A stretch of DNA of 64,000 nucleotides from assembly GCA_052144335.1 (NCBI GenBank), contig JBKQQP010000026.1, positions 135,768 to 199,767 on the forward strand. Reading direction: 5' to 3'. The stretch is from Syntrophales bacterium (GTDB lineage Bacteria; Desulfobacterota; Syntrophia; Syntrophales; UBA2185). Under the pieces are notes generated by a model. The model was not told the DNA's origin. It did not search any database and worked only from the letters and a program-made list of their open reading frames with translations. The position numbers and the translations under genes are program-made. How positions within the stretch are numbered: position 1 is the stretch's first letter; each line of letters starts with the position of its first letter. Positions 31,002-55,918 of this stretch are shown here, piece by piece.

Positions 31002-31421
31002 ATGACAGGGAAGTATCATCCCAGCTGCGAAATTGTGCATAGGGTGCCATTTTACGATCTTGACCCCATGCAGATCGTATGGCACGGAAATTATTTTCTT
31101 TACTTTGAGGATGCCAGAGTGGCCCTTTTCGCACAGGTGGGTGTAGATCTCTATGAGTTTTATCTGCGGACGCAGTATCTTTTCCCCATCATCAAGACGA
31201 CCACAAAACACATCTATCCCCTGAGGCACGGCGATGAATTTATCTGCAAGGCCACCGTGGTTGAGGGAAAGACAAAAATCGTCGTGGATTTTGAAATCAG
31301 GCTTAAAGCTGACGGCAGAGTTTGTACCCGCGGGAGAACCGAGCAGGTTGCCGTAAAGGCACCAGAGATGGAGATTATGTTCACCATCCCCGATGAAATC
31401 AGACAAGCCCTTGGATTCTGA
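31002..31421 (+). CDS. Hotdog-fold acyl-CoA/acyl-ACP thioesterase (4HBT/YbgC-like)
   Basis: VPFYDLDPMQIVWHGNYFLYFEDARVALF matches the YbgC/4HBT N-terminal catalytic Asp block. Confidence 0.8.
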   Translation: MTGKYHPSCEIVHRVPFYDLDPMQIVWHGNYFLYFEDARVALFAQVGVDLYEFYLRTQYLFPIIKTTTKHIYPLRHGDEFICKATVVEGKTKIVVDFEIRLKADGRVCTRGRTEQVAVKAPEMEIMFTIPDEIRQALGF

Positions 31422-31473
31422 TCAATTGGGGAGTTGACTTAAATTGATCGGAATGAAAATAAAATCTATTTTC

Positions 31474-31502
31474 ACACACCCCCTTTTATAAAGGGGGTGT
31501 GT
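31474..31502. terminator. Perfect 12-13 bp GC-rich hairpin between thioesterase and FabH-like gene
   Basis: ACACACCCCCTTT-TAT-AAAGGGGGTGTGT. No clean T-tract follows on the plus strand, so terminator function is uncertain. It may be a REP-like or attenuating structure. Confidence 0.35.
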
Positions 31503-31562
31503 AAGAGACTATATATTTTATTGGTAAAGGTTCAAGTTATAGGGTGAGGAAAAATTATTGAA

Positions 31563-32543
31563 ATGCGCAATTCGGTTATTGCATCAACCGGCAGCTACCT
31601 ACCGGAAAGAGTCGTCCGTAATGAAGACCTGAAACAATTTCCACAGGAGGCGATTCAACTGATCGGCGAGAAGACCGGTGTGTTTTTCCGAAGGATGGCA
31701 TCCGATAAGGAATGTACATCGGATCTGGCGGTGCAAGCGGCGATTGCGTGTCTTGACAGGATTGCTTATTCACCGGAAGGAGTAGAAGGGATTCTTCTTG
31801 CCACCTCCTCCCCGGATCGCATGCAGCCCGCGACAGCGGCGCGGGTGCAGCATATTATAGGTGCGAAAAAAGCCTTTGCCTTCGATATCAATTCAGTCTG
31901 TTCGGGAAGCACCTTCGGCATCGCCGTGGCTGATGCCCTCATTAAATCAGGATATTGCGAGAATATCCTTTTGGTTGCTTCGGAAATGTATTCCAAAATC
32001 ATGAATAGAAAGGATTTTTCATCATACCCCTTTTTCGGAGACGGTGCCGGTGCCGTCTTCTTTCAAGCAGGCGACACCTCTGCCGAAGGAGTTATTCACT
32101 CCTGTTTGAGGACAGACGGAGGCGGCAGCGATACCATCAGCGTTCCCGCAGGGGGGACGATGCTGCCTTTTGCAAAAATGACCAATACCAGGTCTGCTTT
32201 TTTCAAGATGAGAGGCATCGATGTATTTAACTTTGCGGTGGACAAGGGTTCCGAGATAATCCTCCAACTCCTCAAGGATGCTGACGAGGATATAAAAGAT
32301 ATCAAGTGTTTTGTCTGTCATCAGGCGAATGTGAATATCATCCGCAAGATCGCAGACATTCTCGCTGTATCTGCGGACCGGTTTTTTATGAACATCTCTT
32401 CCTACGGCAATACCGCTGCCGCGTCCGTCCTGATAGCCCTCGATGAAGCGATTTCCAAGGGTGTCATTGCGAAAGGAGATCTCGTCGTCACAGTATCTTT
32501 TGGTGGCGGGCTGTCCTGGGGGGCGAACTTGATACGTATCTAA
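31563..32543 (+). CDS. FabH-like 3-oxoacyl-ACP synthase III
   Basis: Cys-His-Asn triad contexts FDINSVCSGSTFG, CHQANVNII, SSYGNTAAASV. Confidence 0.85.
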   Translation: MRNSVIASTGSYLPERVVRNEDLKQFPQEAIQLIGEKTGVFFRRMASDKECTSDLAVQAAIACLDRIAYSPEGVEGILLATSSPDRMQPATAARVQHIIGAKKAFAFDINSVCSGSTFGIAVADALIKSGYCENILLVASEMYSKIMNRKDFSSYPFFGDGAGAVFFQAGDTSAEGVIHSCLRTDGGGSDTISVPAGGTMLPFAKMTNTRSAFFKMRGIDVFNFAVDKGSEIILQLLKDADEDIKDIKCFVCHQANVNIIRKIADILAVSADRFFMNISSYGNTAAASVLIALDEAISKGVIAKGDLVVTVSFGGGLSWGANLIRI

Positions 32544-32558
32544 TGTGAGGAACATGGC

Positions 32559-32834
32559 GTGAATGATATTTGGCAAACGATGAAACAAGTTCTTTTAGAT
32601 AATTTTTTTGAAAGTGGCAATGGATCTATCACCCCGGAGACAAAACTGGGTGAAATGCCCGACTGGGATTCAATGGAGGCTGTGAATTTACAGGTTCTTC
32701 TACACGATACCTTCCATGTAGACCTCCCGCTGGAACTTCTGCATGAAGAAACAATATTTAATGATCTGGTCATGTTTATGGAACAGCCGGACAGGATCGC
32801 CGCAGCGATGAAAAAGTTTAGGGAGAGGACTTAG
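32559..32834 (+). CDS. Acyl carrier protein (ACP 1)
   Basis: GEMPDWDSMEAVNL phosphopantetheine-Ser context. GTG start at 32559 or ATG at 32580. Confidence 0.65.
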   Translation: MNDIWQTMKQVLLDNFFESGNGSITPETKLGEMPDWDSMEAVNLQVLLHDTFHVDLPLELLHEETIFNDLVMFMEQPDRIAAAMKKFRERT

Positions 32835-32907: not shown

Positions 32908-33624
32908 ATGAACAAAGACCGCGTTGCTGTCGTGATTCCCGTTTACAATCATGAGGGGAAGGTTACGCAGGTGGTCAGGGAAGCCCTGAAGCTTCACGTG
33001 CCCCTGTTTGTTATCGATGACGGCTCGACAGATTCCACTTACGACCGTATAAAGGACATATCGCCTGTCACCATCATACGTCATGAAACCAACAGAGGAA
33101 AGGGTGCTGCAATTCTGACCGGTTTAGCAGCAGCAGCCCCATTGGCGGACTGGGTCATCACCATGGATGCCGATGGACAACATCATCCCGAAGATGTCTG
33201 GAATCTGATCATGGCTGTTCCATCCGGCCAAAGGCCTATCGTTGTCGGTCACAGGGAAGGAATGAATCACCGCCATGTACCGTGGACGAGCCGCTTCGGC
33301 AGAGCGTTTTCAAACTTCTGGGTCCGGAAATCAGGAGGTCCGGACATCGGTGACACGCAAAGCGGATTCAGGCTGTATCCTCTTCCGGAGACCATGGATC
33401 TCGGTGTGAGGGCGCAGCGCTTCCAATTTGAGGTTGAAATTCTGGTCAGGGCTAAATGGCACGGTATACCTGTTCTGGAGACGCCCGTCAGAGTGACGTA
33501 TGAAGCCGAAGGTGAGAGGGACTCCCACTATCGCGGCTTTGTCGATTTCTACCGGAATGCAGGTACCTTCTGCCGTCTGATTTTTACGAGATTATGTGTA
33601 TTGCCCTTTATACGAAGAAAATAG
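32908..33624 (+). CDS. Family 2 glycosyltransferase (DPM1/ArnC-like polyprenol-phosphate glycosyltransferase type)
   Basis: VAVVIPVYNHEG, VIDDGSTDST, MDADGQHHPED, TQSGFRLY. Confidence 0.85.
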   Translation: MNKDRVAVVIPVYNHEGKVTQVVREALKLHVPLFVIDDGSTDSTYDRIKDISPVTIIRHETNRGKGAAILTGLAAAAPLADWVITMDADGQHHPEDVWNLIMAVPSGQRPIVVGHREGMNHRHVPWTSRFGRAFSNFWVRKSGGPDIGDTQSGFRLYPLPETMDLGVRAQRFQFEVEILVRAKWHGIPVLETPVRVTYEAEGERDSHYRGFVDFYRNAGTFCRLIFTRLCVLPFIRRK

Positions 33625-33640: not shown

Positions 33641-36600
33641 ATGATGAACGCACACAGACACCTCTTGAGATGGTCCCTTGTGATCGTCGTGATCTTAGCT
33701 GTCATAGGGCTATTCACAACAGGGATATACCGTCTCCAAATTGATACCGATATCCTGCCCTCTCTGCCCCAGGGCGATCCCGTATTAGCCGATGCCCGCT
33801 ATGTCATCATGCATCATCCGATTCATGACAGGGTGGTCGTCGATGTGGGAAATCCCGGCGGGGACATTGATGTCCTCATTGAAGGCGCTAACTTGGTTGA
33901 AGCTAAAATGCGGGCAAGCGGCCTCTTCAAAGAGGTGGGATTCAGTCACATCAGTCAACTGATGCCGGAGCTGATACGGTATATTATCGATCATCTACCG
34001 ATCCTTTTCGATAAGAAGGAGCTTGAAGAAAACGTTAAACCAATGCTCTCGCCCGAAAAAGTGCGGCAGACCATGGGGGATTATTTATATTCCCTGCACC
34101 TTCTTGAAGGGATCGGCGAGATGAGGCTTATCTCCGATGATCCTCTCGCATTGCGAAATTTGGTTCTTTCACGCTTATCGTTTCTTTCACCCGTAAAGGG
34201 CGCCAAAATATATAAAGGTCAGCTCGTCTCATCGGATGGGAAGCATATCTTAATCATGGCCGATCCTTTAATCTCAGGCATGGATACGAGGTTTTCAAGA
34301 CATGTCACGGCGCTGTTGGATAATATCTCTGAAGAGCTGCACGGGAAATATGGCCGGCAGAACGGATTCACCCTGATGCCAATTGGCGCCTATCGTGCCG
34401 CTCTCGATAATGAGTTGAGCGCCAAACGTAATGTTAAAAAAGCAGTTCTGTTTTCCACTGTCGTCATCACCCTCCTGCTATTCGTAGGCTTTCCCAGACC
34501 TCTGATCGGTCTCTTGTCCCTTCTGCCGGCCTTCGCCGGAACCATGATGGCGATCTTCGTGTATTCCCTTTTTCACCATTCCATTTCCATGCTGGCCGTC
34601 GGTTTTGGCGGGGCGATTATTTCCTTTACCGTTGATTACGGCATCACCTATCTTCTTTTTCTTGACCGTCCATACGAAACACGCGGCTTGGAAACTACCA
34701 AGGAGGTCTGGTCTTTGGGTCTTCTTGCCATGCTGACAACTGCCGTCAGCTTTGCATTTCTGTCCGTAAGCGGATTCCCAGCCCTGATGGAAATAGGCCA
34801 ATTTGCCGCTCTGGGAGTTGTATTTACCTATATATTTGTTCATACTTTCTTCCCGTTGTTATTCCCTGTGATGCCCCCCGCAAAACGCCCGCCCTATCTA
34901 CCGCTTCAGCGCATCGTCAGCAGAATCGCATCTTCCGGCGGTATGTGGAAGACTTATGCCGCTTTAGCTCTTGCCGTTGTAATGCTGTTTTTCGCCAGGC
35001 CGGAATTTCGTGTCGATCTGAATACAATGAACGCGGTCAGTCAGGAGACGCTAAGCGCTGAGAAACTCATCCGGGACGTCTGGGGCGATATCATGAGCCG
35101 GCTGTATGTTATGGTGGAGGGATGCGATCAGCACGATCTGCAGCGGAAAAGCGACCGTCTGGCTGATATGCTTGCTCAGGAAGTTGCAGCCGGACGGCTT
35201 TCCCAGGCATTTGTCCCTTCCATGCTTTTCCCAGGCAAGGAGATGGCACGAAAAAATCTTGCGGCGTGGCAGAGTTTCTGGAATCCGGATCGGGTTGCCG
35301 GGCTTCGAAAGAGTATGGGTGAAGCTTCACAGTCATTGGGGTTTTCACCTTCCGCTTTTAATCATTTTTTCGCAATTTTAAATAGACGGGACTTACAGGG
35401 GATCGACATGCCCGAGAAATATTCCGGCCTCCTTGGCATATCGGTAAATAAGGATCGGACTTCGTGGGTAGCGGTTGCGACCCTGAAGCCGGGACCATCA
35501 TACGAGGGAGAGGACTTTTACAGACGCTTCACGGCAACAGGACTGGCAAGGGTGTTTGACCCGTCCCTTTTCGTAAAACGGTTTGAAGCAACCTTGCTTT
35601 CCGCCTTCATCAAGATGGCTGTTATCGTGGGAATAATCACGATATTGACTGCCTTCTTCTATTTTTTCGACTGGCAGCTTACCCTGGTCGGCATGGCGCC
35701 GACACTCTTTGCCCTGATATGCACACTCGGCACACTGAATCTCACAGGGCAGCCCCTCACTATACCGACCCTCATGGTATCCGTCGTAGTCATCGGGATG
35801 GGAACAGACTATGCTCTTTATCTGGTGCGCTCTTATCAGCGCTATTTCGATGAAGATGATCATTCTTTGGGGCTTATACGCCTCTCCGTTTTTCTTTCCT
35901 TCGCCACAACGTTTCTGGGGTTCGGCATTCTGGCACTCGCCGACAATGCCATGCTGAAAAGTGCTGGGTTGGGCCTTGCCTTGGGAATTGGTTATTCCTT
36001 CTTGGGTGCTGTGACGATTACACCGCCCATCTTGAAACGGATGTTTGCGCCTATACCTCCGATGGATGAGGAAATAGTGCCCGGTTCGAAAAGGCACCTT
36101 CAGCGTGCAGTTGGGCGCTACCGGCATATGGAGGCCTATCCGAGACTCTTTGCCCGTTTTAAAATCATCCTCGATCCCATGTTTCCGCGCCTCGCCGAGT
36201 TCATCAGGAAGCCGGAGATCATCATAGATGTGGGGACCGGCTATGGCGTACCCGCTGTCTGGCTTCTCGAGTTGTTTCCCCGGGCGCAAATCTACGGGAT
36301 CGAACCGGATCGCAAGCGTGTGCGTTTCGCATCGCGGGCGATAGGTAAAAGGGGTACCGTCGAGATCGGCCGCGCTCCCGATATACCCGACGTTCCCGGG
36401 ATGGCCGACACGGCCCTTCTCTTGGATATGATTCATCTGATAACCGATGATGCGTTAAGGTTGACTTTACAGCGTCTTCACGGGAAACTTTGTCCTGACG
36501 GTTCTTTGATAGTCAGAGCGACTGTGCCATCGGGAAAACGCATTCCCTGGACGCGCTGGATCGAAACGACGAGGATCAGGCTGCAAAAAGGAACGCCGTA

Positions 36601-36721
36601 CTTCCGTTCGAAGGAGGATATCTTGACCATGATGGCGGAGACTAGTTTTGAGATCACGCGGACAGAAATCAGTTCACCGGGGAAGGAAGAATGGTGGTTT
36701 ATCGCCAAGGTGATCATCTAG
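33641..36721 (+). CDS. MMPL/RND-superfamily exporter fused to a C-terminal SAM-dependent methyltransferase domain
   Basis: About 800 aa form two 6-TM bundles plus two large loops (the MMPL pattern). Residues from about 808 (nt 36062) carry the class I methyltransferase motif I IIIDVGTGYGVPAVWL, then IYGIEPD and LLLDMIHL. Confidence 0.8.
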   Translation: MMNAHRHLLRWSLVIVVILAVIGLFTTGIYRLQIDTDILPSLPQGDPVLADARYVIMHHPIHDRVVVDVGNPGGDIDVLIEGANLVEAKMRASGLFKEVGFSHISQLMPELIRYIIDHLPILFDKKELEENVKPMLSPEKVRQTMGDYLYSLHLLEGIGEMRLISDDPLALRNLVLSRLSFLSPVKGAKIYKGQLVSSDGKHILIMADPLISGMDTRFSRHVTALLDNISEELHGKYGRQNGFTLMPIGAYRAALDNELSAKRNVKKAVLFSTVVITLLLFVGFPRPLIGLLSLLPAFAGTMMAIFVYSLFHHSISMLAVGFGGAIISFTVDYGITYLLFLDRPYETRGLETTKEVWSLGLLAMLTTAVSFAFLSVSGFPALMEIGQFAALGVVFTYIFVHTFFPLLFPVMPPAKRPPYLPLQRIVSRIASSGGMWKTYAALALAVVMLFFARPEFRVDLNTMNAVSQETLSAEKLIRDVWGDIMSRLYVMVEGCDQHDLQRKSDRLADMLAQEVAAGRLSQAFVPSMLFPGKEMARKNLAAWQSFWNPDRVAGLRKSMGEASQSLGFSPSAFNHFFAILNRRDLQGIDMPEKYSGLLGISVNKDRTSWVAVATLKPGPSYEGEDFYRRFTATGLARVFDPSLFVKRFEATLLSAFIKMAVIVGIITILTAFFYFFDWQLTLVGMAPTLFALICTLGTLNLTGQPLTIPTLMVSVVVIGMGTDYALYLVRSYQRYFDEDDHSLGLIRLSVFLSFATTFLGFGILALADNAMLKSAGLGLALGIGYSFLGAVTITPPILKRMFAPIPPMDEEIVPGSKRHLQRAVGRYRHMEAYPRLFARFKIILDPMFPRLAEFIRKPEIIIDVGTGYGVPAVWLLELFPRAQIYGIEPDRKRVRFASRAIGKRGTVEIGRAPDIPDVPGMADTALLLDMIHLITDDALRLTLQRLHGKLCPDGSLIVRATVPSGKRIPWTRWIETTRIRLQKGTPYFRSKEDILTMMAETSFEITRTEISSPGKEEWWFIAKVII

Positions 36722-36757: not shown

Positions 36758-37666
36758 ATGAAGGACATTTTCTATAAGCTTTTAATCGGCCTAACAAAGC
36801 GAATGGGACTATGGGTGTTCCGTGTGATGGCTTGGTTCGTTGCAACCGGATATTTTTTCCTTTTTCCGGGAAGGGTGGCGGCAAGTATTCAATTTTACGG
36901 GGCGCTTTTTCCGTCAAGGACACTATTGTACCATGTCTGGTGCGCATGGAGGCAATATCACAATTTCACCAATGTCTACTTGGACCGGTTTCTCATCTTC
37001 GAGGAACATAATATTACCGTCACCCCTAAGGGGTGGGAATTCCTTGAGGATGCCGTTAAAAGAAAGGTGGGCGGTATAATTCTTATGTCCCATGTAGGGA
37101 ACTGGGAAATTGCGGCTCATATGCTCAAGGTTCATGGCCGCAACAATCCGCAGATGAATCTGCTTCTCTACCTCGGCCAGAAGCACAAGGACCAGATTGA
37201 GCACACGCAGAAGGAAAGCCTCGTCCATAGCGGCGTGAAGATTATAGTTGCGGAAGAGAATGGAGGATCCCCCGCCGATATCATCGAAGGCATGAACTTT
37301 CTGAGAGCGGGCGGGTTGGTTTCTCTGACGGGTGACCGAATATGGCGTAAAGACCAGCGTTCCATACCTGTTAGATTCCTTGGGCATGAGGCATTTCTGC
37401 CAGAAACTCCCTTCATATTTGCCCTGCTGTCTGGCGCCCCACTGTTTATTTTTTTTGGGTATCGAATGGGAAAACATGCGTATCACTTTCAAATCCTACC
37501 TCCGGAATATGTCCACGCGGAAGACCGGAAGGACAGACAGGAAGCCATCAGAAGGGCGGCTCAGTTCTATGCCGACCGTATTGAGGAAATGGTGCGGAAA
37601 TGTCCCTTTGAATGGTTCCACTTTGAACATTTTATCGGACGAAAACTGGATGAGGATTTGAGTTGA
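36758..37666 (+). CDS. LpxL/HtrB-type lysophospholipid (lipid A biosynthesis) acyltransferase family protein
   Basis: N-terminal TM and HX4E catalytic motif SHVGNWEIAA, with size and layout as LPLAT_LABLAT. Confidence 0.75.
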   Translation: MKDIFYKLLIGLTKRMGLWVFRVMAWFVATGYFFLFPGRVAASIQFYGALFPSRTLLYHVWCAWRQYHNFTNVYLDRFLIFEEHNITVTPKGWEFLEDAVKRKVGGIILMSHVGNWEIAAHMLKVHGRNNPQMNLLLYLGQKHKDQIEHTQKESLVHSGVKIIVAEENGGSPADIIEGMNFLRAGGLVSLTGDRIWRKDQRSIPVRFLGHEAFLPETPFIFALLSGAPLFIFFGYRMGKHAYHFQILPPEYVHAEDRKDRQEAIRRAAQFYADRIEEMVRKCPFEWFHFEHFIGRKLDEDLS

Positions 37667-47698: not shown

Positions 47699-48703
47699 GT
47701 GTCTATGAAAACAGTCAGCTCCTTACTGGATGAAGCATGGCATGAGCGTTACAGAAAGATATCCAGTCTAAATATTCGCAGTTCCATCTATGATGTGACT
47801 AATCAGTGCAATTTGCGCTGCATGGGCTGTTTCTTTTTTTCTTCTAACGAACATCAAGCCGCCCATGAGGAAACGGATGTGGGAAAATGGTCGCTGTTTG
47901 TTCAAAAGGAAAAGGAGCGGGGTGTCAATCTCGCCATATTGATCGGCGGAGAACCGACTCTTTACCTTGACCGGGTCGAGGCCTTTTGCAATCTACTGCC
48001 AACCTATTGCGCGACAAATGGTCTGATAAAGATTCCCAGAGAACGTTTTCCCGATATGATGGTGGGCATCTCGCTATGGGGTAATGAGGAAGACGAAAAA
48101 TTACTCAGGGGGAAAGACACGTTTGCCGTATCCAGCAAAAACTATAAGGGAGATCCTAATACCTATTATCTCTATACGATTACGCCAAAGCAAGTTGGAC
48201 GGATAGAGCACGTAATCGGCAAGATTGCCGACGTTGGTCTGAAGGTCCATTTGCAGTTGCTGTCAAATGATGAAAATGTCGATGGCTTTTTCTGGACGGA
48301 AGGGAAGCTGAAAGACGTTCGGGCCGAGATGGACGATATGCTTGAACAATACCCGAGCACCGTTATTTCCTGCAAGTATTATCATGAGATCATCACCACG
48401 GGGAGGATGATGAACCGGACATTTGGATGGACAGAATGCCCATCTGTTACTGAACCGCTGGATAACAGAAATCCCAAGCCAAGAAGGCTCATCCGGTTTA
48501 TCCGATGGGCTTCCGATCTTCAAACTATGCACCGATGCTGCACTTCTGCCACAAGGGATTGTTCGACGTGCAAGGATGGCGCTGCGCATATGAGCTGGGT
48601 TATGGTCAATAAGAGAGAACATCTAAATTCAACGAAGGATCTCCAGAACTGGATTGAAGTGTATGAAATGTTCGCCAAACTTTACCGGTTCATACCATGG
48701 TAG
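47699..48703 (+). CDS. Radical SAM enzyme, paralog B
   Basis: VTNQCNLRCMGCFF. It aligns by eye with paralog A through the first roughly 150 aa (YD.TN.CN.RC.GC...W......K.RG.N...L.G.EP....ATNG..KIP). C-terminal CCTSATRDCSTCKDGAAH. GTG at 47699 or ATG at 47705. Confidence 0.8.
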   Translation: MSMKTVSSLLDEAWHERYRKISSLNIRSSIYDVTNQCNLRCMGCFFFSSNEHQAAHEETDVGKWSLFVQKEKERGVNLAILIGGEPTLYLDRVEAFCNLLPTYCATNGLIKIPRERFPDMMVGISLWGNEEDEKLLRGKDTFAVSSKNYKGDPNTYYLYTITPKQVGRIEHVIGKIADVGLKVHLQLLSNDENVDGFFWTEGKLKDVRAEMDDMLEQYPSTVISCKYYHEIITTGRMMNRTFGWTECPSVTEPLDNRNPKPRRLIRFIRWASDLQTMHRCCTSATRDCSTCKDGAAHMSWVMVNKREHLNSTKDLQNWIEVYEMFAKLYRFIPW

Positions 48704-49995
48704 CGTCACGTACTCCCCCTCTACCCGAAACCAAGCAGACAAGGATGGAAAGAATTCGACCTGTTATACTGGGTTATGACGCAGTATCACCTCTAGGTAT
48801 CGATATGAAAGCCCAGTGGGATCGTGCGTTGAGCGGCGCAAGCGGTATTGGTGCGTTGACGCGCTTCCCGATCCGCCACGGGTTCCCCGTGAGAATCGCC
48901 GGTCAGGTTGAGGATATCGACACTAACGCCTATCCTTTCTTAAAATCCCGCGATATGGCACTGTGGACATCACCCGTTTTCAGCCATGCGATGCTGGTAG
49001 TCCACCGAGCGCTCGCAAAAAGCAGTATCGAAATAAAGGATGACATCGCTCCCAGAGTAGCCATAACCTTCAGTACCGCCGTCGGCGGTCTCGATGCCGT
49101 GATCCGAGCGGACAGGATGTGGGTTTCCGGAGGTAAACTCCCCCATCCGTTTACCAATGCGAACTCCTGCATCAATATGGTAGGAGGAAAAATTTCCATC
49201 ATGACCGGGGCGACAGGACCAATAACCTCGACCATTACCGCATGTGCTACGGGTTCTACCTCCATGATCATCGGGGCTATGTTAATAGAACAAGGTATGG
49301 CAGATGTTGTCATCTGCGGCGCCGTTGATTTCCCTCTTGTTGAGACTATAGTGGGCGGTTTTTTCACGATGAACGGTGCATACAGGCCGAAAGACGGGCA
49401 ACCAGAAGAACCTCCGGAGAAGGCAAGCCGTCCCTTCTCCATCAACAGAAGAGGCTTCGTCGTGTCCGAGGGTGCCGGCTGTATTATCCTCGCAAGTAAG
49501 GATTACGCGAAGGCCCACGGGTTAATACCCCAAATTGAAATGGCGGGATGGGGTATGACATCAGACGCCCATCATTTTGTTGCCCCGAACCTGGAGACGG
49601 TAAGGAGGTGCATCGCGGGGAGCATTGCTCATTCCGGCTTAAAGCCGGCAGATATTGATGCAGTCAATGCCCACGGGACATCGACGAAGATCGGAGATAA
49701 GGTAGAAGGGGATGCATTGAGGGACATTTTCGGCGAGGACATGCCGCCGGTATCGGCAAACAAGTCCCAGACAGGTCATGCAATGGGGGCGTCCTCCGCC
49801 ATTGAGATAATCCTTGCAATGGAAGGGATGATTCATGATACGGTCCTCCCTACGATTAATTATATACCTGATCCTGATTTAGCTATCGATTGCGTACCGG
49901 AAGGGGCAAGACGAGTGGCTCAGGAGCATGTGTTAAAAAATGCATTTGGATTCGGTGGCTCTAATTCATGCATTGTCCTTCGCAGAATTGGATGA
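48697..49995 (+). CDS. FabF/FabB-like beta-ketoacyl-ACP synthase (KS a)
   Basis: TITACATGSTSM, NAHGTSTKIGD, KSQTGHAMGASSA, NAFGFGGSNSCIV. An alternative start is at 48745 (MERIRPVILG). Confidence 0.85.
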   Translation: MVASRTPPLPETKQTRMERIRPVILGYDAVSPLGIDMKAQWDRALSGASGIGALTRFPIRHGFPVRIAGQVEDIDTNAYPFLKSRDMALWTSPVFSHAMLVVHRALAKSSIEIKDDIAPRVAITFSTAVGGLDAVIRADRMWVSGGKLPHPFTNANSCINMVGGKISIMTGATGPITSTITACATGSTSMIIGAMLIEQGMADVVICGAVDFPLVETIVGGFFTMNGAYRPKDGQPEEPPEKASRPFSINRRGFVVSEGAGCIILASKDYAKAHGLIPQIEMAGWGMTSDAHHFVAPNLETVRRCIAGSIAHSGLKPADIDAVNAHGTSTKIGDKVEGDALRDIFGEDMPPVSANKSQTGHAMGASSAIEIILAMEGMIHDTVLPTINYIPDPDLAIDCVPEGARRVAQEHVLKNAFGFGGSNSCIVLRRIG

Positions 49996-50022: not shown

Positions 50023-51288
50023 ATGAAAGCACCAAAGAACAGAAGAGTTTTTGTCATTGGTTATGGTGCTGCGACGCCGCTGGGAAAAACTTTTAAGAAG
50101 ACCTGGGAACGGGCGGTTAGGGGCGAGGCTGGTTTCCGCAAGGTTACCCGATGTCACGTGGAATCCATCAGCAATGTTGTGGGAGAGATACCGGATTGGG
50201 ATCCCACGACTTACGATTTTTCGAGTGAAAAGGAAGTTTACAACTGGAACGCAGCCTTTGTCATTCTTACCATGGCAGTCTGTAAAGAAGCCCTGGAAAA
50301 TTCGGGGCTAGAAATGAACAAAGAAACAGGGCCGAGAACAGCCTGCCTTATCGGCTCTGCCATAAACGGAATGGACTCATTCCGCGTCGCCATGGAAAAT
50401 TTGAGGGAAAAAGGACCGTTGAAAGTGAGTCCTTACCTCCTTCCCAATCTCTGTGCTAATATGCCGTCGGGCAAGGCTGGGATGCTTTTGGGCTTTACCG
50501 GTCCGATATTCTCTCCCCAGGGGGCATGTGCCACGGGGAATCATGCCATTGCCATCGGGTCAAGGATGATAAGGGACGGGGACTGTGACTTTGTTCTCGC
50601 CGGCGGCGTAGAGATGCCTATTATACCGGAGATTATCCATGGCTTTGCCAATATGAATGCCACAGTAAAGATGCATCGCAGTGATCGAGCTTATGACGAT
50701 GCAGGACAGGCGTCGCGGCCTTTCAGCATCGATCGAAGAGGTTTTGTAGTTTCTGAAGGGGGAGGCGTTGTTGTTCTGGCTGCGGATGAGACCCTCTCGA
50801 GTTACGGACTCAAGGCAAAGGCTGAGGTCATGGGTATAGGTTGGACGTCAGATGCCTATCATTTTACGAGGCCGAACAAGTCTACTGCCATACGGGCGAT
50901 CTCGGAAACCATTGAAGATGCGGGACTCATGCCGAATGATGTGGGGTATATAAATGCCCACGGAACATCAACGACAACCGGAGACAGCATGGAAGTAGAA
51001 TGTCTGCAGACCGTTTTCGGAGACAGATTGAAACATATTCCCATATCATCCAACAAATCCCAGATAGGCCATTCCCTGGGTGCCACCGCCGCCATAGAAA
51101 ATGCGCTCACCATCGAAGGAATGCAAAGGGGCGTGCTCCTCCCTACAATAAATTATGTCCCGGATCCGCAGTTTGGCGGCTTGGACTTTGTTCCGAACAA
51201 GGCACGGAGGCAGCGGCATGAGATTGCCCTGTCAAATGCCTTCGGTTTTGGAGGTACAAACTGCTGCGTTATATTCAGAGGAGTGTAG
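50023..51288 (+). CDS. FabF/FabB-like beta-ketoacyl-ACP synthase (KS b)
   Basis: PQGACATGNHAI, NAHGTSTTTGD, KSQIGHSLGATAA, NAFGFGGTNCCVI. Confidence 0.85.
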   Translation: MKAPKNRRVFVIGYGAATPLGKTFKKTWERAVRGEAGFRKVTRCHVESISNVVGEIPDWDPTTYDFSSEKEVYNWNAAFVILTMAVCKEALENSGLEMNKETGPRTACLIGSAINGMDSFRVAMENLREKGPLKVSPYLLPNLCANMPSGKAGMLLGFTGPIFSPQGACATGNHAIAIGSRMIRDGDCDFVLAGGVEMPIIPEIIHGFANMNATVKMHRSDRAYDDAGQASRPFSIDRRGFVVSEGGGVVVLAADETLSSYGLKAKAEVMGIGWTSDAYHFTRPNKSTAIRAISETIEDAGLMPNDVGYINAHGTSTTTGDSMEVECLQTVFGDRLKHIPISSNKSQIGHSLGATAAIENALTIEGMQRGVLLPTINYVPDPQFGGLDFVPNKARRQRHEIALSNAFGFGGTNCCVIFRGV

Positions 51289-51289
51289 G

Positions 51290-51769
51290 ATGAAACCGAA
51301 ACCATTCAGACCGGAAGCAGCCGGGCTTGATGACTGCTATGTCCGTGATCAAGAAACTTGCCTTGTCTGGCACCGCTGCGAGATGCGGACGCTTTACGCC
51401 GATACGGACCGTTCGTCGGTGGTATATCACGCAAACTATCTCCGTTACTTTGAGTTCGGCCGCACCTCGCTGATGCGGCATGCGGCATATCCTTACCGGG
51501 AAATAGAAGAGAGCGGCTACTTATACCCCATTATAGAACTGGGTATATGTTTCCATGAACCGCTCTTTTATGACGATCTCATGTTGGTGTATACCCGTCC
51601 GGTGGAGCTTGCACGGGTGAAGCTTCGTTTTGATTACGTGATCACCCATCCTGAAACCGGGGGAATCATCTGCAAAGGATTTACCAGGCATTGTGCGCTT
51701 AATTCATCGGGGAAGCCTGTAGCCGTTGATCCGAAGACGGTTCATCTGTGGGAAACATTCCCGCAGTGA
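51290..51769 (+). CDS. Hotdog-fold thioesterase (YbgC-like), second copy
   Basis: LYADTDRSSVVYHANYLRYFEFGRTSLM. Start at 51290 is 1 nt after the KS b TAG stop. Confidence 0.8.
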   Translation: MKPKPFRPEAAGLDDCYVRDQETCLVWHRCEMRTLYADTDRSSVVYHANYLRYFEFGRTSLMRHAAYPYREIEESGYLYPIIELGICFHEPLFYDDLMLVYTRPVELARVKLRFDYVITHPETGGIICKGFTRHCALNSSGKPVAVDPKTVHLWETFPQ

Positions 51770-51818: not shown

Positions 51819-52097
51819 ATGATACGCGATGAAATCATAACGCAAGTACTCATCTTCTTCCGAGAGGAATTTGAGATTGAAAATCCGGGACTGGATGATA
51901 ACCTGAGAGAAAAGCACGCGTTTGACAGTATAGATGCCATCGAGTTGCTCCTCAAGATCGAAAAAATACTCGGTTACGAATTGACCCAGGAGGAAAAGAA
52001 ACAGGCCATGGATATCCGGACTATCAATCAGATCTGTGATTATATAGAGTCGCTGGCCAGGACAAGACCGTTACTACCAAGTGGTGAGGCTAGCTGA
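51819..52097 (+). CDS. Acyl carrier protein (ACP 4)
   Basis: EKHAFDSIDAIELLLKIEKILG. Confidence 0.8.
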   Translation: MIRDEIITQVLIFFREEFEIENPGLDDNLREKHAFDSIDAIELLLKIEKILGYELTQEEKKQAMDIRTINQICDYIESLARTRPLLPSGEAS

Positions 52098-52114: not shown

Positions 52115-53350
52115 ATGGAAAGAAGGGTCGTCATTACAGCGTGTTCATCAATCACCCCCATTGGCCGCACCAAAGAGGAGATTCTTCACAATCTCGTTCA
52201 CGGAATTTCCGGGGTAAAGGCATTGCGGGAGGACGGCCTTCTCTCTCAGTACATCCACTCCAAGGTGTTTGGAACCGTTGACTACCCCATCGTCTATGAT
52301 TTCAAGCGTCAACACCGGAAAACCATGGGTCCTGTTGCCTATTACGCCTGCCAGGTGGCAAAGGAAGTGCTTGAAAACGCCGGACTGGATCAGGCCTTTG
52401 TCACATCCGGTAGATTGGGGGTTGCCTTTGGTTCGACCCACGGAAGCCCTACTGTTCAGCGGGATATCTACAGGACTTTTTTCGGCGCATCACGAACCGA
52501 ATTTTCCACCATAGGCGCCGTCGATTATCTGAAATCCATGGTCCACACCACGGCCGTTAATATTACCAAAATGTTCGGTATTACAGGCCGCGTCATTTCA
52601 TCATCCACGGCGTGCACGACGAGCAGCCAATCCATAGGTTACGGTTATGAAGCGATCAAGTACGGGATGCAGGACGCCATGCTCTGCGGCGGTGCTGACG
52701 AATACGATACGACCACCGTCGCCGTGTTCGATAATCTGCTCGCCTGTTCGACGGCTTTCAATGATACACCCCATCTTACACCCCGTCCCTTTGATGTGAA
52801 GAGGGACGGACTGGTCGTGGGAGAGGGAGCAGGGGCCGTCATGCTGGAGGAATATGGGTATGCACGGAAAAGGGGCGCCCCGATACTCGCCGAGGTCATA
52901 GGATTCGCCTGCAACAACAACGGCGGAGACCTGATCCTGCCGAATCTGAGCGGCATCAGAGAAACCATCCGGATAGGCCTGAAGGATGCAAAAATCAATG
53001 CAGATGAGGTGGATCTCATCAGTGCCCACGCTACGGGAACCAAAATGGGCGATGTGATTGAATCGCAGGCTATTTACGACGTCTACGGGAATCTGCCCCG
53101 CGTTGTCGGGTTGAAAGGTTATATGGGGCACACAATGGGTTCGTGCGGCGCTATTGAAACCGTCATTGCGGTATATCTGATGGAGGAAGGATTTATAGCA
53201 CCGACTCTGAACCTGAATGAGATCGATGAAAGGTGCGCCATGATCAATCACATCGTGAAGCTCCGGGAATATCCTGTCCGGATCGCAACCATCCAGAATT
53301 TTGCATTCGGCGGTGTGAACACCAGTCTAGTTATAAAAAAAATGCCTTGA
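52115..53350 (+). CDS. FabF/FabB-like beta-ketoacyl-ACP synthase (KS c)
   Basis: SSSTACTTSSQSIG, SAHATGTKMGD, KGYMGHTMGSCGA, NFAFGGVNTSLVI. RBS GGGAG. Confidence 0.85.
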   Translation: MERRVVITACSSITPIGRTKEEILHNLVHGISGVKALREDGLLSQYIHSKVFGTVDYPIVYDFKRQHRKTMGPVAYYACQVAKEVLENAGLDQAFVTSGRLGVAFGSTHGSPTVQRDIYRTFFGASRTEFSTIGAVDYLKSMVHTTAVNITKMFGITGRVISSSTACTTSSQSIGYGYEAIKYGMQDAMLCGGADEYDTTTVAVFDNLLACSTAFNDTPHLTPRPFDVKRDGLVVGEGAGAVMLEEYGYARKRGAPILAEVIGFACNNNGGDLILPNLSGIRETIRIGLKDAKINADEVDLISAHATGTKMGDVIESQAIYDVYGNLPRVVGLKGYMGHTMGSCGAIETVIAVYLMEEGFIAPTLNLNEIDERCAMINHIVKLREYPVRIATIQNFAFGGVNTSLVIKKMP

Positions 53351-53426: not shown

Positions 53427-54191
53427 ATGTTTTCTGCATTGTTAAAACCGGTTAAGGATTTCACCGTTACAGTCACCCTCTGGACATACTACATTATTGG
53501 ATACCTCGTGTTCTTTTCTCCATTCTATCTTTCTGCCTTCTTTTTTTCGGCCAGACGTGAAGAGGCCTTTCAAAAATTTAATTACCAGCTCCACCGTCTC
53601 TTTTTCTCTCTTTTGCGAACCATCGTTCCCAGAGTGAAATGGCACATATCGGAAGAGGTCTCTAGTATTCGCTCCTCTATTATCATTGCCAACCATCTTT
53701 CTTTCCTTGACCCCATTCTCTTCGTGTCTCTGTTTGAAAAACAAAAGACCATCGTCAAAAGCGACTACTTCAGACTTCCCGTTTTTGGCTGGATTTTGAA
53801 AACATCCGGCTATATTCCTTCCACGACGGAAGGCCTGTTTACGGAAAACATGATTGACCAGATAAAAAACATGAAAGATTATCTGTCATCAGGGGGGAAT
53901 CTGTTTATATTTCCCGAGGGGACGAGAAGCCGCAACGGCCGGATAGGCCAATTTGATAAAGGCGCATTCAAGATTGCGAGGCTTTGTCATGCGCCGATTC
54001 AGGTGGTATTAATCAAGAATACCCATAAACTCTTTTCTCCTGGTAAGTTTTTATTTGATACCTGTACCGAAAATGTAATCGCGATAGAACTGGCCGGAAA
54101 CCTTAAACCGGATTATGAAAGCGATGACTTTTCCATATCCGCTCTTATGGCGGAGGTGCGGAGGCTCATGGAAAGAAAAACGGATTTATGA
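53427..54191 (+). CDS. PlsC-type 1-acyl-sn-glycerol-3-phosphate acyltransferase family protein
   Basis: N-terminal TM, HX4D motif ANHLSFLDP and the FPEGTRS block. Confidence 0.8.
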   Translation: MFSALLKPVKDFTVTVTLWTYYIIGYLVFFSPFYLSAFFFSARREEAFQKFNYQLHRLFFSLLRTIVPRVKWHISEEVSSIRSSIIIANHLSFLDPILFVSLFEKQKTIVKSDYFRLPVFGWILKTSGYIPSTTEGLFTENMIDQIKNMKDYLSSGGNLFIFPEGTRSRNGRIGQFDKGAFKIARLCHAPIQVVLIKNTHKLFSPGKFLFDTCTENVIAIELAGNLKPDYESDDFSISALMAEVRRLMERKTDL

Positions 54192-55019
54192 AAATTGTCC
54201 TTATATCAATGCCGGATGTTATCCCTATTGTTATCCATGAAATGGCGCTCTATATGCCCAATCACGGCATCGCCTGTATCGGTGGAAATATCGATGAGGG
54301 GCATGAGGTCTATCTCATTGACCTGGTGCGAAAACGCGGCGGCATCTCAACCTATCTGACGAAAAGCTTGAAAAAAATCAATCCAGACCTAATTGGCCTT
54401 TCTGCCATGACGTGGCAGTATCCAACCAGTGTGGCGGTGATGGGTCTCATTAAAAGCATTCTTCCCCATGTTAAGATCGCTATCGGTGGCCATCATGCCA
54501 CATTGATGAGCAGAGAAATGGCTGCATCTCCCGAATCGAATGGGATGGACTTCATCATTACGGGGGAAGGGGAAGAGGTGTTCCTCGGGTTGGTAAATGC
54601 CCTGGGGGTGGAGACAAACTGAGAGACATACCATCTGCCAGATGTTGACGCCTTATCCAAAAACCAAGCTCAGAGAATATTTGATCAGTGAAAACCTGGT
54701 CACAAATCACGATCGCTATGAAAGGTATAGCGGCTTCTGGGCAAATGTGAAAACCCGGCATCTGGAATCTGATCAGTTACAGTATGCCTTCTGGCGTTAC
54801 CAGCAAACCGCATTGAGGTGGTGGAAACCATAGGTCTTTCCATGTAAACAAGGCAAGGTATGGACGCCCTTCTGGATGTATATGGTGAAGCCTGTCATGA
54901 AATTTTTCATAGAAAGGCAGCCCCGCAAGATCGGCTGGGAAGAAAAGTATCGAAGATATGTCCGTCGATTGGAAATGATGAATCGCTCCTACGATCTGGA
55001 GAGGTTCAGAGGAGATTAA
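54188..55019 (+). pseudogene. Remnant of a B12-binding radical SAM gene (core deleted, frameshift, in-frame TAG)
   Basis: Piece 1 (54188-54622) is an intact-looking B12-binding domain (KIVLISMP...DLIGLSAMT...IAIGGHHAT...FIITGEGE) ending in TGA. The sequence continues in another frame with the C-terminal-type segment QMLTPYPKTKLREYLISENLV. A TAG at 54831-54833 interrupts the same frame before a further tail ending at 55019. No CxxxCxxC motif is present anywhere. Confidence 0.55.
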
Positions 55020-55022
55020 ACC

Positions 55023-55283
55023 ATGGAAGACCATTTCCTGGTAAGGCAACATATCCGTCTACCCCTTATAATCCCCGTTGATCCTTATCTCAAAGATCGT
55101 CATTTTGAAGGAAGAGTCATTCTTCCCGCTGCTAAGATTCTTCACCGCTGGCCGGTTCCGTACAGGCTTACTGCTCTGATGCCCATGTTAGTTGTATTCG
55201 TTCAGCTTCATTCGATAAGTTTTTGCAGATCGAAGAGCATTCCCAAGTCCCCCTTTGAAAAGGGTGAGGGGATTTCAGTTTAA
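55023..55283 (+). pseudogene. Probable N-terminal fragment of a PKS-type dehydratase gene
   Basis: PVDPYLKDRHFEGRVILPAAKIL fits the PKS DH HxxxGxxxxP motif context. After about 45 aa the sequence becomes non-protein-like and runs into a CCCCCTTTGAAAAGGG hairpin-like repeat. Confidence 0.35.
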
Positions 55284-55348
55284 AGCTCACAGGAAATACT
55301 TTTCGTCCCTACCACTATTTCATATCGACCACAGGGAGAAATTTTACA

Positions 55349-55918
55349 ATGATAGTGGCGCTTCTGCTCACATTAGCCTATTTCGCAGGTTCAGTTAATT
55401 TTTCCATCCTGCTCTTCAGGATATTGGGAAAGGATGATCCAAGATATCACTTTAGCAGGAATGCCGGAGTTACGAATGTCTATCGACAGGCCGGTATATT
55501 CTGGGCCGGCGTCGTACTTTCACTTGACTTAGGCAGGGCGCTGGCAATCGGCACCGCCGCTCTCTATTTACTTGATAAACCACTCGTGCCGTGGGTCGGA
55601 TTAGCCCTGGTTGTTGGCAACACCTATCCCTGCTTTCATGGGTTCCAAGGAGGGAAAGGTGTGGCGAGTTATATCGGCTTTACCGCGGCTATGTCTCCCG
55701 TCTCTTCCATACTCTCTTGCATTATTTGGGTAATTGTGTTCCGCATTTGCCGGATTCCCTTCATAGCTTCCTTTTTCATGATCATCGCAATTGCCACAGG
55801 AATCATTTACACATACAGTCATGAGGTTATTGCTGTTTCCGGTGTTTTGGCAACATCCCTGTTGATATTCTATAATCATAAAAGGAATATCATATCCATG
55901 ATTGAGAAAAGTAAGTGA
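55349..55918 (+). CDS. plsY: Acyl-phosphate:glycerol-3-phosphate acyltransferase
   Basis: 189-aa polytopic protein. YFAGSVNFSILL, SRNAGVTNVYR (the GSGNxGATN-type motif, slightly divergent) and HGFQGGKGVA. RBS GGGAGA. Confidence 0.8.
   Translation: MIVALLLTLAYFAGSVNFSILLFRILGKDDPRYHFSRNAGVTNVYRQAGIFWAGVVLSLDLGRALAIGTAALYLLDKPLVPWVGLALVVGNTYPCFHGFQGGKGVASYIGFTAAMSPVSSILSCIIWVIVFRICRIPFIASFFMIIAIATGIIYTYSHEVIAVSGVLATSLLIFYNHKRNIISMIEKSK

Follow-up and report, generated by a model that had tools for sequence, protein, structure and literature searches.

To our knowledge, how ladderanes are made has been an open problem since 2002, and no genetic system exists for anammox bacteria. The "ladderane-like" clusters of non-anammox organisms are the only handle on the enzymes that they share with anammox bacteria. 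The subject of this report is a gene cluster of this kind in a 64-kb stretch of DNA from a Syntrophales bacterium (contig JBKQQP010000026.1; hereafter the window), together with a 4.9-kb downstream extension read from a second contig, L088. Related loci of other species used for comparison are likewise given L-numbers (L001, L007 and so on).

Two sets of anammox genes serve as the points of reference. Rattray et al. described in 2009 a striking synteny between the extended cluster for fatty acid synthesis of type II (FAS II) of Kuenenia and loci of Desulfotalea psychrophila (PMC2649909). The published list for the Kuenenia cluster, kuste3335-3352, runs from a glycosyltransferase (GT), PDH, a membrane protein, an S-adenosylmethionine (SAM) enzyme, FabZ, an acyl carrier protein (ACP), FabG, two successive radical SAM (rSAM) enzymes and a CoA ligase to FabF, a methyltransferase, a non-canonical FabF, a further FabF, an ACP and a deacetylase (PMC4790861). 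The second set is Cluster I (kuste3603-3608), comprising amxACP, amxFabZ, amxFabF2, amxFabFmut, PDH and a B12-binding radical SAM enzyme (B12-rSAM), and reported to be exclusive to ladderane producers. Its amxFabF2 pairs with the mutant FabF in a heterodimer that resembles a ketosynthase (KS) and chain-length factor (CLF), and decarboxylates malonyl-ACP (bioRxiv 10.64898/2026.05.19.726425). Surveys based on antiSMASH list such loci as "ladderane" clusters in non-anammox phyla.

As a Syntrophales representative, the locus belongs to the "extended FAS II" or "ladderane-like" clusters, a family that is uncharacterised but has been known since 2009. Its gene content and order suggest an auxiliary, ACP-dependent pathway of the type II FAS or polyketide synthase (PKS) kind, which would operate as one system and make a specialised envelope or membrane lipid without oxygen. 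A probability of roughly 55% is assigned to this reading, each step of which is drawn from homology and synteny.

Extent and Organization of the Locus

Families were assigned by Pfam and NCBIfam scans of the translated open reading frames (ORFs). The ORF listing shows an uninterrupted, co-directional run on the plus strand from 31002 to 55918, with 22 intact genes and two remnants. Gene spacing is operon-like: neighbours overlap by 4 nt at four junctions and by 7 and 22 nt at two others, and the largest gaps measure 279, 224 and 141 nt. The run is preceded by one candidate promoter:

30948-30976 (+): candidate sigma-70-like promoter, TTGACA-17-TATACT, 26 nt 5′ of the first ATG, recognised by consensus match only (11/12 positions)

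The original prediction, made from the letters of the window, had the gene order and the gene-by-gene annotation essentially right and had already placed the consensus-like promoter at 30948. It spoke of about 23 intact co-directional genes, of which the shared direction holds and the count becomes 22 plus two remnants. These remnants are the two decayed genes that it had recognised, and they can now be named as a B12-rSAM gene and a PKS-type dehydratase gene. Its limits of 31002 and 55918 were too narrow, as syntenic genes continue downstream in the window and past its end. Contig L088 (Logan) is identical to the window over 11,877 bp and reaches window-equivalent position 68908; with this extension included, the system spans at least 28.5-68.5 kb, or roughly 40 kb. 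Base composition does not differ between the cluster and its flanks, and no cobalamin or other riboswitches were found in the window with Rfam.

Comparison with Anammox Clusters

Between 37716 and 53350, the operon encodes the following:

37716-39215 (+): B12rSAM_a, cobalamin-binding radical SAM enzyme with DUF4070 (Pfam); a variable accessory gene
39495-39761 (+): ACP2 (Pfam PP-binding; PRK09184 at 65 bits against a cut-off of 70)
39758-41938 (+): KS-CLF fusion (Pfam ketoacyl-synt and Ketoacyl-synt_2, PF13723)
41935-43416 (+): PDH, CrtI/CrtD/RetSat-like FAD flavoenzyme (Pfam Amino_oxidase and NAD_binding_8; under every NCBIfam carotenoid cut-off)
43413-44762 (+): B12rSAM_b, "lipid biosynthesis B12-binding/radical SAM protein" (curated NCBI model TIGR04072, rSAM_ladder_B12, aligned at positions 1-443 of 443; 395 bits against a cut-off of 360)
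44741-45577 (+): NodB-family deacetylase, membrane-anchored (Pfam Polysacc_deac_1; N-terminal hydrophobic segment)
45802-46194 (+): FabZ/ApeI-like hotdog dehydratase (Pfam FabA and ApeI-like, both over their cut-offs)
46261-46527 (+): ACP3 (Pfam PP-binding)
46556-47635 (+): rSAM_c, radical SAM enzyme with CxxxCxxC and a C-terminal CCx5Cx2C motif; no close solved structure
47699-48703 (+): rSAM_d, paralogue of rSAM_c and the most conserved core gene
48697-49995 (+): KS_a, FabF-like ketosynthase, Cys-His-His triad and lysine intact
50023-51288 (+): KS_b, FabF-like ketosynthase, Cys-His-His triad and lysine intact
51290-51769 (+): TE2, YbgC/FadM-type thioesterase (TIGR00051 at 79.6 bits, above the cut-off of 68.7)
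51819-52097 (+): ACP4 (Pfam PP-binding)
52115-53350 (+): KS_c, PRK09116-type ketosynthase, triad and lysine intact; linked to PlsC in many loci

Compared by published family names and order only, the succession PDH, B12-rSAM, FabZ-like protein, ACP, rSAM, rSAM, KS, KS, ACP, KS parallels kuste3336-3350. In position, the rSAM pair of the window also matches kuste3342/3343 of the published list, since it too lies between the FabZ-ACP genes and the FabF paralogues. Both clusters possess a flavoenzyme of the phytoene desaturase type (PDH), several ACPs and a number of FabF paralogues, with one lacking the catalytic triad among them. A GT, transporter, methyltransferase, deacetylase, acyl-CoA ligase and FabG are also common to both, although the ligase and the short-chain dehydrogenase/reductase (SDR) of the present locus lie on the L088 extension. 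The hosts, Desulfotalea among them, are strict anaerobes. There are differences as well. The window has KS joined to CLF in one protein, and its methyltransferase forms part of an MMPL transporter fusion; FabG and the ligase belong to a divergent operon; and the locus adds PlsC, PlsY, a FakA-DegV kinase and an extra B12-rSAM with DUF4070.

For Cluster I, loci of the Brocadiaceae type (L081 and L082) and of the Scalindua type (L090) were compared, with protein comparisons made against the Brocadiaceae type. In both types, the large kuste3335-3352-type cluster was not found within 10 kb of Cluster I. The window (39495-46194) and L081 (9194-15449) share an arrangement of ACP, KS, inactive KS partner, PDH and B12-rSAM plus a FabZ-like dehydratase. 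Moreover, in PDB sequence comparison the KS half ranks 9s5h_B first (E 2e-62), before any FabF; the close homologues of 9s5h_B all come from Brocadia, Jettenia, Kuenenia and Scalindua, and it is accordingly identified as amxFabF2.

Sequence identities with Cluster I are nonetheless low. They amount to 34% between amxFabF2 and the KS half, 22% between the two PDH proteins, 29% over 79 residues between amxFabZ and the window dehydratase, and, for the Cluster I B12-rSAM, 28% with B12rSAM_a (E 2e-46, its best match in the window) and 23% with B12rSAM_b. For amxACP, no match was obtained among the window proteins. The CLF half is of the PF13723 type and matches amxFabFmut over only 118 residues, so that it differs from the full-length mutated FabF of Cluster I, and the Cluster I B12-rSAM fails TIGR04072, scoring 88 bits against the cut-off of 360. 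As judged from these comparisons, the relation is one of shared family and architecture, not of orthology, which agrees with the reported restriction of Cluster I to ladderane producers.

A rival reading is that the cluster makes ladderanes, the fatty acids with concatenated cyclobutanes that have been put forward as products of the anammox clusters. The enzyme families are those of the anammox candidates, the order ACP, KS, CLF, PDH, B12-rSAM is common to both, a member of the "rSAM_ladder_B12" family TIGR04072 is present, and amxFabF2 is the nearest of the solved structures to the KS half. Such a product is very improbable all the same: the host belongs to Syntrophales and is not an anammox bacterium, Cluster I is matched at only 22-34% with no counterpart of amxACP and with a B12-rSAM far under the TIGR04072 cut-off, and ladderanes are reported from anammox bacteria only, none having been found in Desulfotalea despite its syntenic clusters (PMC2649909). 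The likeness to candidate ladderane clusters that had been claimed at the outset thus holds for the TIGR04072 member and for the parallel with kuste3336-3350, and does not extend to close identity with Cluster I.

Distribution and Conservation

Homologues of the PDH protein number 731 at E<=1e-20, and a pattern scan of one genome per species located PDH relatives in 298 of about 185,000 species genomes. Synteny was then compared by tblastn of the window proteins against the best 80 of these 298 species loci. The 80 comprise Syntrophales, Desulfobulbales, Desulfobacterales and a few metagenome-assembled genomes (MAGs) of Spirochaetota/Leptospirales; isolates among them are Desulfopila sp. IMCC35006 and Desulforhopalus sp. 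IMCC35007, and no anammox genome is included. The suggestion that homologous clusters occur in deltaproteobacteria is borne out accordingly, the best 80 loci being of Desulfobacterota or, in a few cases, Spirochaetota.

The order PDH-B12b-NodB-DH-ACP-rSAM_c-rSAM_d-KS_a-KS_b (B12b and DH denoting B12rSAM_b and the dehydratase) is kept in 21 of the 80 loci, mostly those of Syntrophales, and the shorter block ACP-rSAM-rSAM-KS-KS in 27. The rSAM and KS genes are the best conserved, with median identities of 74-82%. Order and identity are conserved far beyond chance, which argues for a working, selected system. Parts of the cluster recur in Desulfobulbales and Desulfobacterales, and the KS-CLF fusion is kept in 39 loci. 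The accessory gene for B12rSAM_a is variable: L001 alone has it where the window does, and in L007 and L059 it follows NodB.

The nine-gene core also occurs in window order in three of the Spirochaetota/Leptospirales MAGs (L042, L043 and L061), which are assigned to a different phylum. Their proteins share 48-78% identity with those of the window, a finding that suggests either horizontal transfer or mis-binning.

The narrow distribution also bears on whether the locus might be the primary fatty acid synthase and phospholipid acyltransferase set of the organism. While FabH, FabZ-like, FabF-like, ACP, PlsC and PlsY functions are all encoded, this idea is scarcely credible. FabD, enoyl reductase and acetyl-CoA carboxylase are missing from the locus; the PlsY, PlsC and KS genes fall under curated cut-offs (for the KS genes, that of fabF in NCBIfam); PDH relatives occur in only the 298 species genomes mentioned above; and pseudogenes and a transposase lie within the locus. 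Kuenenia, for its part, keeps a separate, canonical plsX-fabH-fabD-acp-fabF operon (PMC4790861). The original prediction had already set the cluster apart from housekeeping synthesis, and it did so correctly, given an operon without fabD, fabI or acc and PlsY and PlsC proteins that score under the NCBIfam cut-offs.

Condensing and Putative Tailoring Enzymes

Five KS-type domains are encoded, four with a Cys-His-His triad and one CLF-like. In alignments, the N-terminal half of the KS-CLF fusion keeps the Cys-His-His triad and the lysine, and the corresponding triad residues of the C-terminal half are Asp, Val and Glu, which marks that half as chain-length-factor-like. The DS motif is carried by ACP2, ACP3 and ACP4, as well as by a divergent fourth carrier protein, ACP1. 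The dehydratase retains the histidine of its HFPxxPxxPG motif and has a Ser aligned at the position of the catalytic Glu of FabZ. PDH probably acts on C-C or C=C bonds. The metal-binding and catalytic motifs of NodB (TFDDGP and HSYSH) are intact.

The whole locus holds five intact radical SAM genes and one remnant. For B12rSAM_b, the next best families after TIGR04072 are the cobalamin methyltransferases BzaD and TsrM. In both rSAM_c and rSAM_d, CxxxCxxC is accompanied by CCx5-6Cx2C, a motif conserved at the C-terminus, and no informative PDB sequence matches were found for either. The median identity of rSAM_d is 82% over 32 loci, and no more than 31 among 1.84 billion representative proteins match it at E<=1e-30; in a 50%-clustered search its orthologues form a single cluster, and all others share <=38% identity. 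An AlphaFold 2 model of rSAM_d (pLDDT 86) finds its best PDB folds, at TM 0.43-0.51, in SkfB, BlsE, anSME, viperin and GDGT-MAS. Since these matches concern generic SPASM/twitch/viperin-like cores only, a specific assignment of rSAM_c/d, including C-C coupling of the tetraether synthase kind, was dropped.

The named distant relatives of rSAM_d (<=38% identity) belong to Acidobacteria, Streptomyces, Burkholderia and Tistrella, none of which is anammox. Those of Streptomyces chattanoogensis (L084, 9240-17828) and Burkholderia ambifaria (L085, 8375-11718) share 25-36% identity with rSAM_d. They are translationally coupled to a PaaA/PaaC-like ferritin-fold protein and lie near AMP-ligase-ACP-KS, ACP and thioesterase genes, and the Streptomyces context also includes AurF-like and Rieske oxygenases. 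This cassette looks like an uncharacterised secondary-metabolite system distinct from the window cluster. By analogy, its neighbourhoods suggest that the substrates of rSAM_c/d-type enzymes are bound to carrier proteins.

Domain partners are shuffled among related loci. For example, NodB is fused to a methyltransferase in L086 (7661-9139), whereas the window fuses the methyltransferase to the MMPL transporter instead, and in L031 (9420-10943) a PKS-type dehydratase is fused to a phosphopantetheinyl transferase. These shuffled fusions support a functional coupling of the parts.

A set of enzymes such as this could also serve the oxygen-independent synthesis of polyunsaturated fatty acids (PUFAs) that feed long polyunsaturated hydrocarbons, which is the hypothesis of Rattray for Desulfotalea. 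That organism makes C31:8 and C31:9 hydrocarbons from a genome without a recognisable PUFA-type polyketide synthase (Rattray et al., PMC2649909), and the present locus combines a flavoenzyme resembling desaturases with several ketosynthases and dehydratases, and lacks an enoyl reductase. The explanation is possible but doubtful here. No ole genes were found in the window or the 4.9-kb extension, there is no FabA-type isomerase signature, and Kuenenia genes expressed in E. coli yielded no polyunsaturated acids (PMC4790861); moreover, it would account neither for the presence of five radical SAM enzymes nor for the genes of sugar transfer and export.

Aryl-Polyene-Type Genes and the Probable Unity of the Locus

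The first part of the operon encodes the following:

31002-31421 (+): TE1, hotdog (4HBT/YbgC-like) thioesterase (Pfam 4HBT_2 and 4HBT)
31563-32543 (+): FabH-type β-ketoacyl-ACP synthase III (KAS III), a priming condensing enzyme (PRK09352 at 309 bits, above the cut-off of 249; Pfam ACP_syn_III)
32559-32834 (+): ACP1, divergent ACP-like protein with a DWDSM serine motif (sub-threshold matches only, all to carrier proteins)
32908-33624 (+): family 2 glycosyltransferase (GT2) of the polyprenyl-phosphate-sugar synthase type, PpgS/ArnC-like (Pfam Glycos_transf_2; NCBIfam PpgS at 1.6e-24, under the cut-off)
33641-36721 (+): fusion of an MMPL/RND (HpnN-like) transporter with a C-terminal class I SAM methyltransferase (Pfam MMPL, Sterol-sensing and Methyltransf_25/11/23)
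36758-37666 (+): lysophospholipid/lipid A acyltransferase (LPLAT) of the LpxL/ApeD type (Pfam Lip_A_acyltrans at 47 bits, above the cut-off of 22)

The MMPL-methyltransferase fusion has about 11-12 hydrophobic segments. Its methyltransferase domain (36101-36721, +) finds only two recently deposited methyltransferases, 9sm3/9sm5 and 9sls, in the PDB, and these weakly (E about 2e-4 to 5e-4). A possible identity of this domain with the anammox protein AmxMT1 was considered and rejected, as the structure 8HD2 was not matched. ACP1 is conserved in L001, L029 and L034.

These genes raise the question of whether two independent systems stand side by side, namely an aryl-polyene-type pigment and export cluster and a radical SAM lipid core of its own. 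The aryl-polyene toolkit is indeed close to complete, and some Syntrophales carry the core without KS-CLF and export genes at that position (L083; L012-L022). However, several arrangements elsewhere make such a division unlikely. Orthologues of TE1 are grouped with GT2 and LPLAT in L041, L045 and L048, and GT2 and LPLAT are grouped with ACP4, KS_c, PlsC, a B12 gene and PDH in Desulfocapsa-type loci; Desulfocapsa-type and Desulfobacterales loci interleave GT2, LPLAT and TE1 with the genes of the supposed second system. In Desulfobulbales, KS-CLF lies directly between ACP2 and B12b-PDH. A ketoreductase (KR), LolA and AMP-ligase travel with PDH in 16-18 loci, and when the lipoprotein, B12rSAM_f and FakA-DegV genes are added to these three, the range is 16-21 loci. 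Finally, the Kuenenia cluster likewise mixes a GT, membrane protein, FabG, CoA ligase and methyltransferase with radical SAM genes (PMC4790861). Since aryl-polyene-type genes are interleaved with radical SAM, PDH and PlsC genes in other genomes, the locus is treated here as one system.

Predicted Lipid Assembly Genes and the Two Remnants

The operon ends with acyltransferase genes and two broken genes, and a fatty-acid kinase and a further B12-rSAM gene follow on the opposite strand:

53427-54191 (+): divergent PlsC-type 1-acylglycerol-3-phosphate acyltransferase (Pfam Acyltransferase; TIGR00530 at 72 bits, under the cut-off of 103)
54188-55010 (+): B12-rSAM pseudogene, BchE-like (tblastn with intact orthologues of 495-502 aa)
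55023-55283 (+): what is left of a gene for a PKS-type double-hotdog dehydratase (match to intact genes over about the first 41 residues only)
55349-55918 (+): divergent PlsY, acyl-phosphate:glycerol-3-phosphate acyltransferase (Pfam G3P_acyltransf; TIGR00023 at 94 bits, under the cut-off of 137)
60941-62662 (-): FakA-DegV (FakB) fusion, predicted fatty-acid kinase (Pfam Dak2, FakA-like_M and DegV)
62952-64000, running off the window (-): B12rSAM_f, B12-binding radical SAM enzyme (Pfam; the full gene encodes 426 aa and ends at window-equivalent 64232)

PlsY and PlsC look like divergent paralogues, as both score under the NCBIfam cut-offs, and they recur beside KS_c and TE2 in relatives. The ORF of TE2 opens at 51155; its conserved protein is about 159 aa long (159 aa in the L083 orthologue), so the start is probably at 51290. 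Orthologues of FakA-DegV adjoin PDH clusters in about 20 other species (21 loci), and those of B12rSAM_f, at 68-72% identity, occur in 16 loci. On L088, the genes that follow B12rSAM_f on its strand encode a lipoprotein, LolA, an SDR ketoreductase whose cofactor and YxxxK motifs are intact, and then a hotdog dehydratase, while the gene for an AMP-ligase is divergent; the AMP-ligase and SDR genes span window-equivalent 65694-68477. These extension genes occur within 10 kb of a PDH gene in 16-18 other species.

Of the original B12-rSAM protein (about 497 aa), the pseudogene retains residues 1-139 and 373-496 in different frames, with the radical SAM core deleted. Intact counterparts of the dehydratase remnant are PS-DH proteins with or without ACPS domains, and the L031 fusion with a phosphopantetheinyl transferase is one of them. 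An independent Logan assembly contains both remnants with exactly identical sequence.

The breakage of two adjacent late genes, the DDE transposase that splits the locus and the IS110 transposase upstream could be taken to indicate a decaying, non-functional relic. This is distinctly improbable for the source genome. The 22 plus-strand genes are intact, as are the kinase and B12 genes downstream, and catalytic motifs are kept; identity to relatives is high, and identical proteins are found in two sets of NCBI MAG records as well as in independent Logan assemblies. Decay is limited to the two late genes. With these two broken, the product in the source genome may be a truncated variant.

Proposed Pathway

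The preferred reading, that of a single auxiliary pathway to a specialised lipid, can be set out as a series of putative steps. Priming and early elongation would fall to FabH and KS-CLF, which would build a chain on the dedicated ACPs with the ketoreductase of the extension and the pair of hotdog dehydratases. As the locus encodes no enoyl reductase, the intermediate would probably be unsaturated and similar to an aryl polyene, which is the kind of substrate used by relatives of CrtI, CrtD and RetSat. In a tailoring phase, PDH and the radical SAM enzymes (the TIGR04072 B12 enzyme, the rSAM_c/rSAM_d pair and the further B12 enzymes) may modify the ACP-bound chain by methylation, by desaturation or saturation, or by C-C bond formation. 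Further elongation by KS_a, KS_b and KS_c could take place on ACP3 and ACP4.

For loading, TE2 would free the acid, FakA-DegV would convert it to the acyl-phosphate, and the private PlsY would transfer it to glycerol-3-phosphate; synteny is what this thioesterase-Fak-PlsY step is inferred from. A second chain may be transferred from ACP by the private PlsC to give phosphatidic acid. GT2, NodB, LPLAT, the methyltransferase, MMPL and LolA would then add a (deacetylated) sugar or acyl group and carry the lipid to the outer membrane.

A narrower version, in which the CrtI-like flavoenzyme and the radical SAM enzymes would convert an aryl-polyene-like unsaturated acyl-ACP, independently of oxygen, to a methyl-branched, cross-linked or carbocyclic non-ladderane fatty acid that is loaded into phospholipids by the private thioesterase, kinase, PlsY and PlsC, is put forward tentatively, as a minority possibility. 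As part of the same version, such a carbocyclic or branched pathway may be the sister or ancestor of anammox ladderane synthesis.

Several observations weigh against the single-pathway reading. Cobalamin-dependent radical SAM enzymes do far more than methylation, the radical SAM roles proposed here are guesses, and rSAM_d has no close structural relative. PDH is far from every characterised carotenoid enzyme, and the PDH homologues of Kuenenia failed to complement CrtI (PMC4790861). For the family outside the anammox structural work, no product, transcript or enzyme activity has been reported, and the lipids of Desulfotalea are ordinary fatty acids and acyclic C31:8 and C31:9 hydrocarbons only (PMC2649909). 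KS-CLF and the export genes are absent from their position in some Syntrophales (L083), so that the single-pathway reading may merge two systems. As for lipid assembly, a PlsX encoded elsewhere in the genome could feed PlsY, and Fak may just salvage fatty acids. The two pseudogenes and the transposase inside the locus also count on this side.

Flanking Genes

Other genes within or beside the cluster are the following:

26153-27196 (-): IS110-family transposase, 5′ of the cluster
28501-30633 (-): exported coiled-coil protein of 710 aa, divergent from the cluster (N-terminal hydrophobic segment; no Pfam or NCBIfam family)
56718-57125 (+): small predicted lipoprotein with a LASC lipobox, a possible accessory gene with a homologue inside the L007 cluster
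57517-58668 (-): DDE transposase, IS4/IS5-like (Pfam DDE_Tnp_1_6), which splits the plus-strand operon from the minus-strand kinase/B12 operon and is not part of the pathway
59337-60761 (-): alpha/beta hydrolase of 474 aa, directly downstream of the fatty-acid kinase gene

Orthologues of the 710-aa protein lie inside or beside the cluster in L007 (68% identity), L059 (54%) and L035. It is a possible accessory envelope component of uncertain membership. In L007 (14098-18472), homologues of the lipoprotein, the DUF4070 B12-rSAM and the 710-aa protein are contiguous between NodB and the dehydratase; the same genes are scattered in the window. A counterpart of the 474-aa hydrolase is absent from all related loci compared.

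Elsewhere in the window, a selenocysteine tRNA gene (anticodon TCA, 24090-24187, +) lies just 3′ of moeA (22842-24083). A flavin reductase-rubredoxin fusion (5086-5820, +) is situated among the housekeeping genes maf, a YggS-like gene, a copper P-type ATPase gene, uvrA, mfd and two SurA-like genes, and is unrelated to the cluster.

Significance

The locus is an unusually complete member of a kind of cluster known since 2009, not a new kind of system. What is added here is that the family is widespread and strongly conserved in Syntrophales, with parts in Desulfobulbales and Desulfobacterales and the core in some Spirochaetota. To judge by the literature searched, further additions are the actual extent of the locus, its aryl-polyene-type scaffold, the private kinase-PlsY-PlsC line, the fused KS-CLF with amxFabF2 as its nearest solved relative, and the narrow rSAM_c/d family. 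That the cluster type has no established product, as was originally stated, is still the case in the literature to 2026; searches on TIGR04072, on Desulfotalea with pfa or ole, and on ladderane with Geobacter or Syntrophus found no product assignment.

That the locus brings along a fatty-acid kinase, PlsY and PlsC of its own suggests a phospholipid as the end product. An ordinary branched or unsaturated lipid as product would be of interest chiefly for anaerobic lipid tailoring; a carbocyclic or cross-linked one would have a direct bearing on ladderane formation. Should the pathway be a sister or ancestor of the anammox one, its chemistry would be open to culture-based testing, with related sub-clusters in isolates and reported in Desulfotalea psychrophila. 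With the additions made here, a vague "unusual FAS cluster" is turned into concrete questions for cultivable relatives.

Comparison with Other Known Systems

Some familiar systems can be set aside quickly. Of the housekeeping arrangement plsX-fabH-fabD-fabG-acpP-fabF, FabD and PlsX were not found in the window or the extension, and neither was an enoyl reductase. As for Pfa-type PUFA synthases, the locus has only discrete proteins, and matches to TIGR02813 are at the level of the KS domain (40-75 bits against a cut-off of 1010).

The likeness to aryl polyene clusters is greater. The roles of the genes ApeA-R are reported in Cimermancic 2014 and Grammbitter 2019. In gene content alone, both systems have a KS/CLF of the PF13723 type, an extra KS, ACPs, an SDR ketoreductase and an ApeI-like dehydratase, and the window locus adds a second hotdog protein as a candidate counterpart of ApeP. 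An AMP-ligase, a methyltransferase and a thioesterase are likewise common to both, and so are an LpxL-type acyltransferase, GT2, a LolA-like carrier and an MMPL exporter. The ApeI-like match scores 33.7 bits (cut-off 28.5), and the second hotdog protein scores 18.7 bits against ApeP-like, under the cut-off of 27. The resemblance noted in the original prediction is hence confirmed by the PF13723 CLF half, the ApeI-like dehydratase and the presence of GT2, LPLAT, MMPL, thioesterase and methyltransferase genes. Its companion point, that the radical SAM, CrtI-like and deacetylase genes are foreign to such clusters, is equally sound, with five intact rSAM genes, PDH and NodB at the locus. Aryl polyene clusters are not known to have radical SAM enzymes, a CrtI-like flavoenzyme, NodB, PlsC, PlsY or a fatty-acid kinase, whereas the window has all of these, and hosts of window-type loci are strict anaerobes. 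The term "aryl polyene" is not mentioned in the anammox structural literature examined.

Discrete KS proteins with a catalytically dead partner, acting on ACP-bound chains, are a further point of likeness with the highly reducing type II PKS systems of ishigamide (Iga11/12) and cispentacin (AmcF/AmcG). Iga11 (6kxd) and AmcF are significant matches but rank under amxFabF2 and FabF, and the tailoring and lipid-assembly genes are not shared.

Lastly, in the FakA/FakB-PlsY-PlsC route of Firmicutes, a DegV-type fatty-acid binder and a Dak2 kinase are combined with an acyl-phosphate-dependent PlsY and with PlsC. The same three activities are predicted at the window locus. The difference is that the kinase and binder of the window are fused and located inside a biosynthetic cluster, alongside a pathway thioesterase and divergent PlsY and PlsC proteins.

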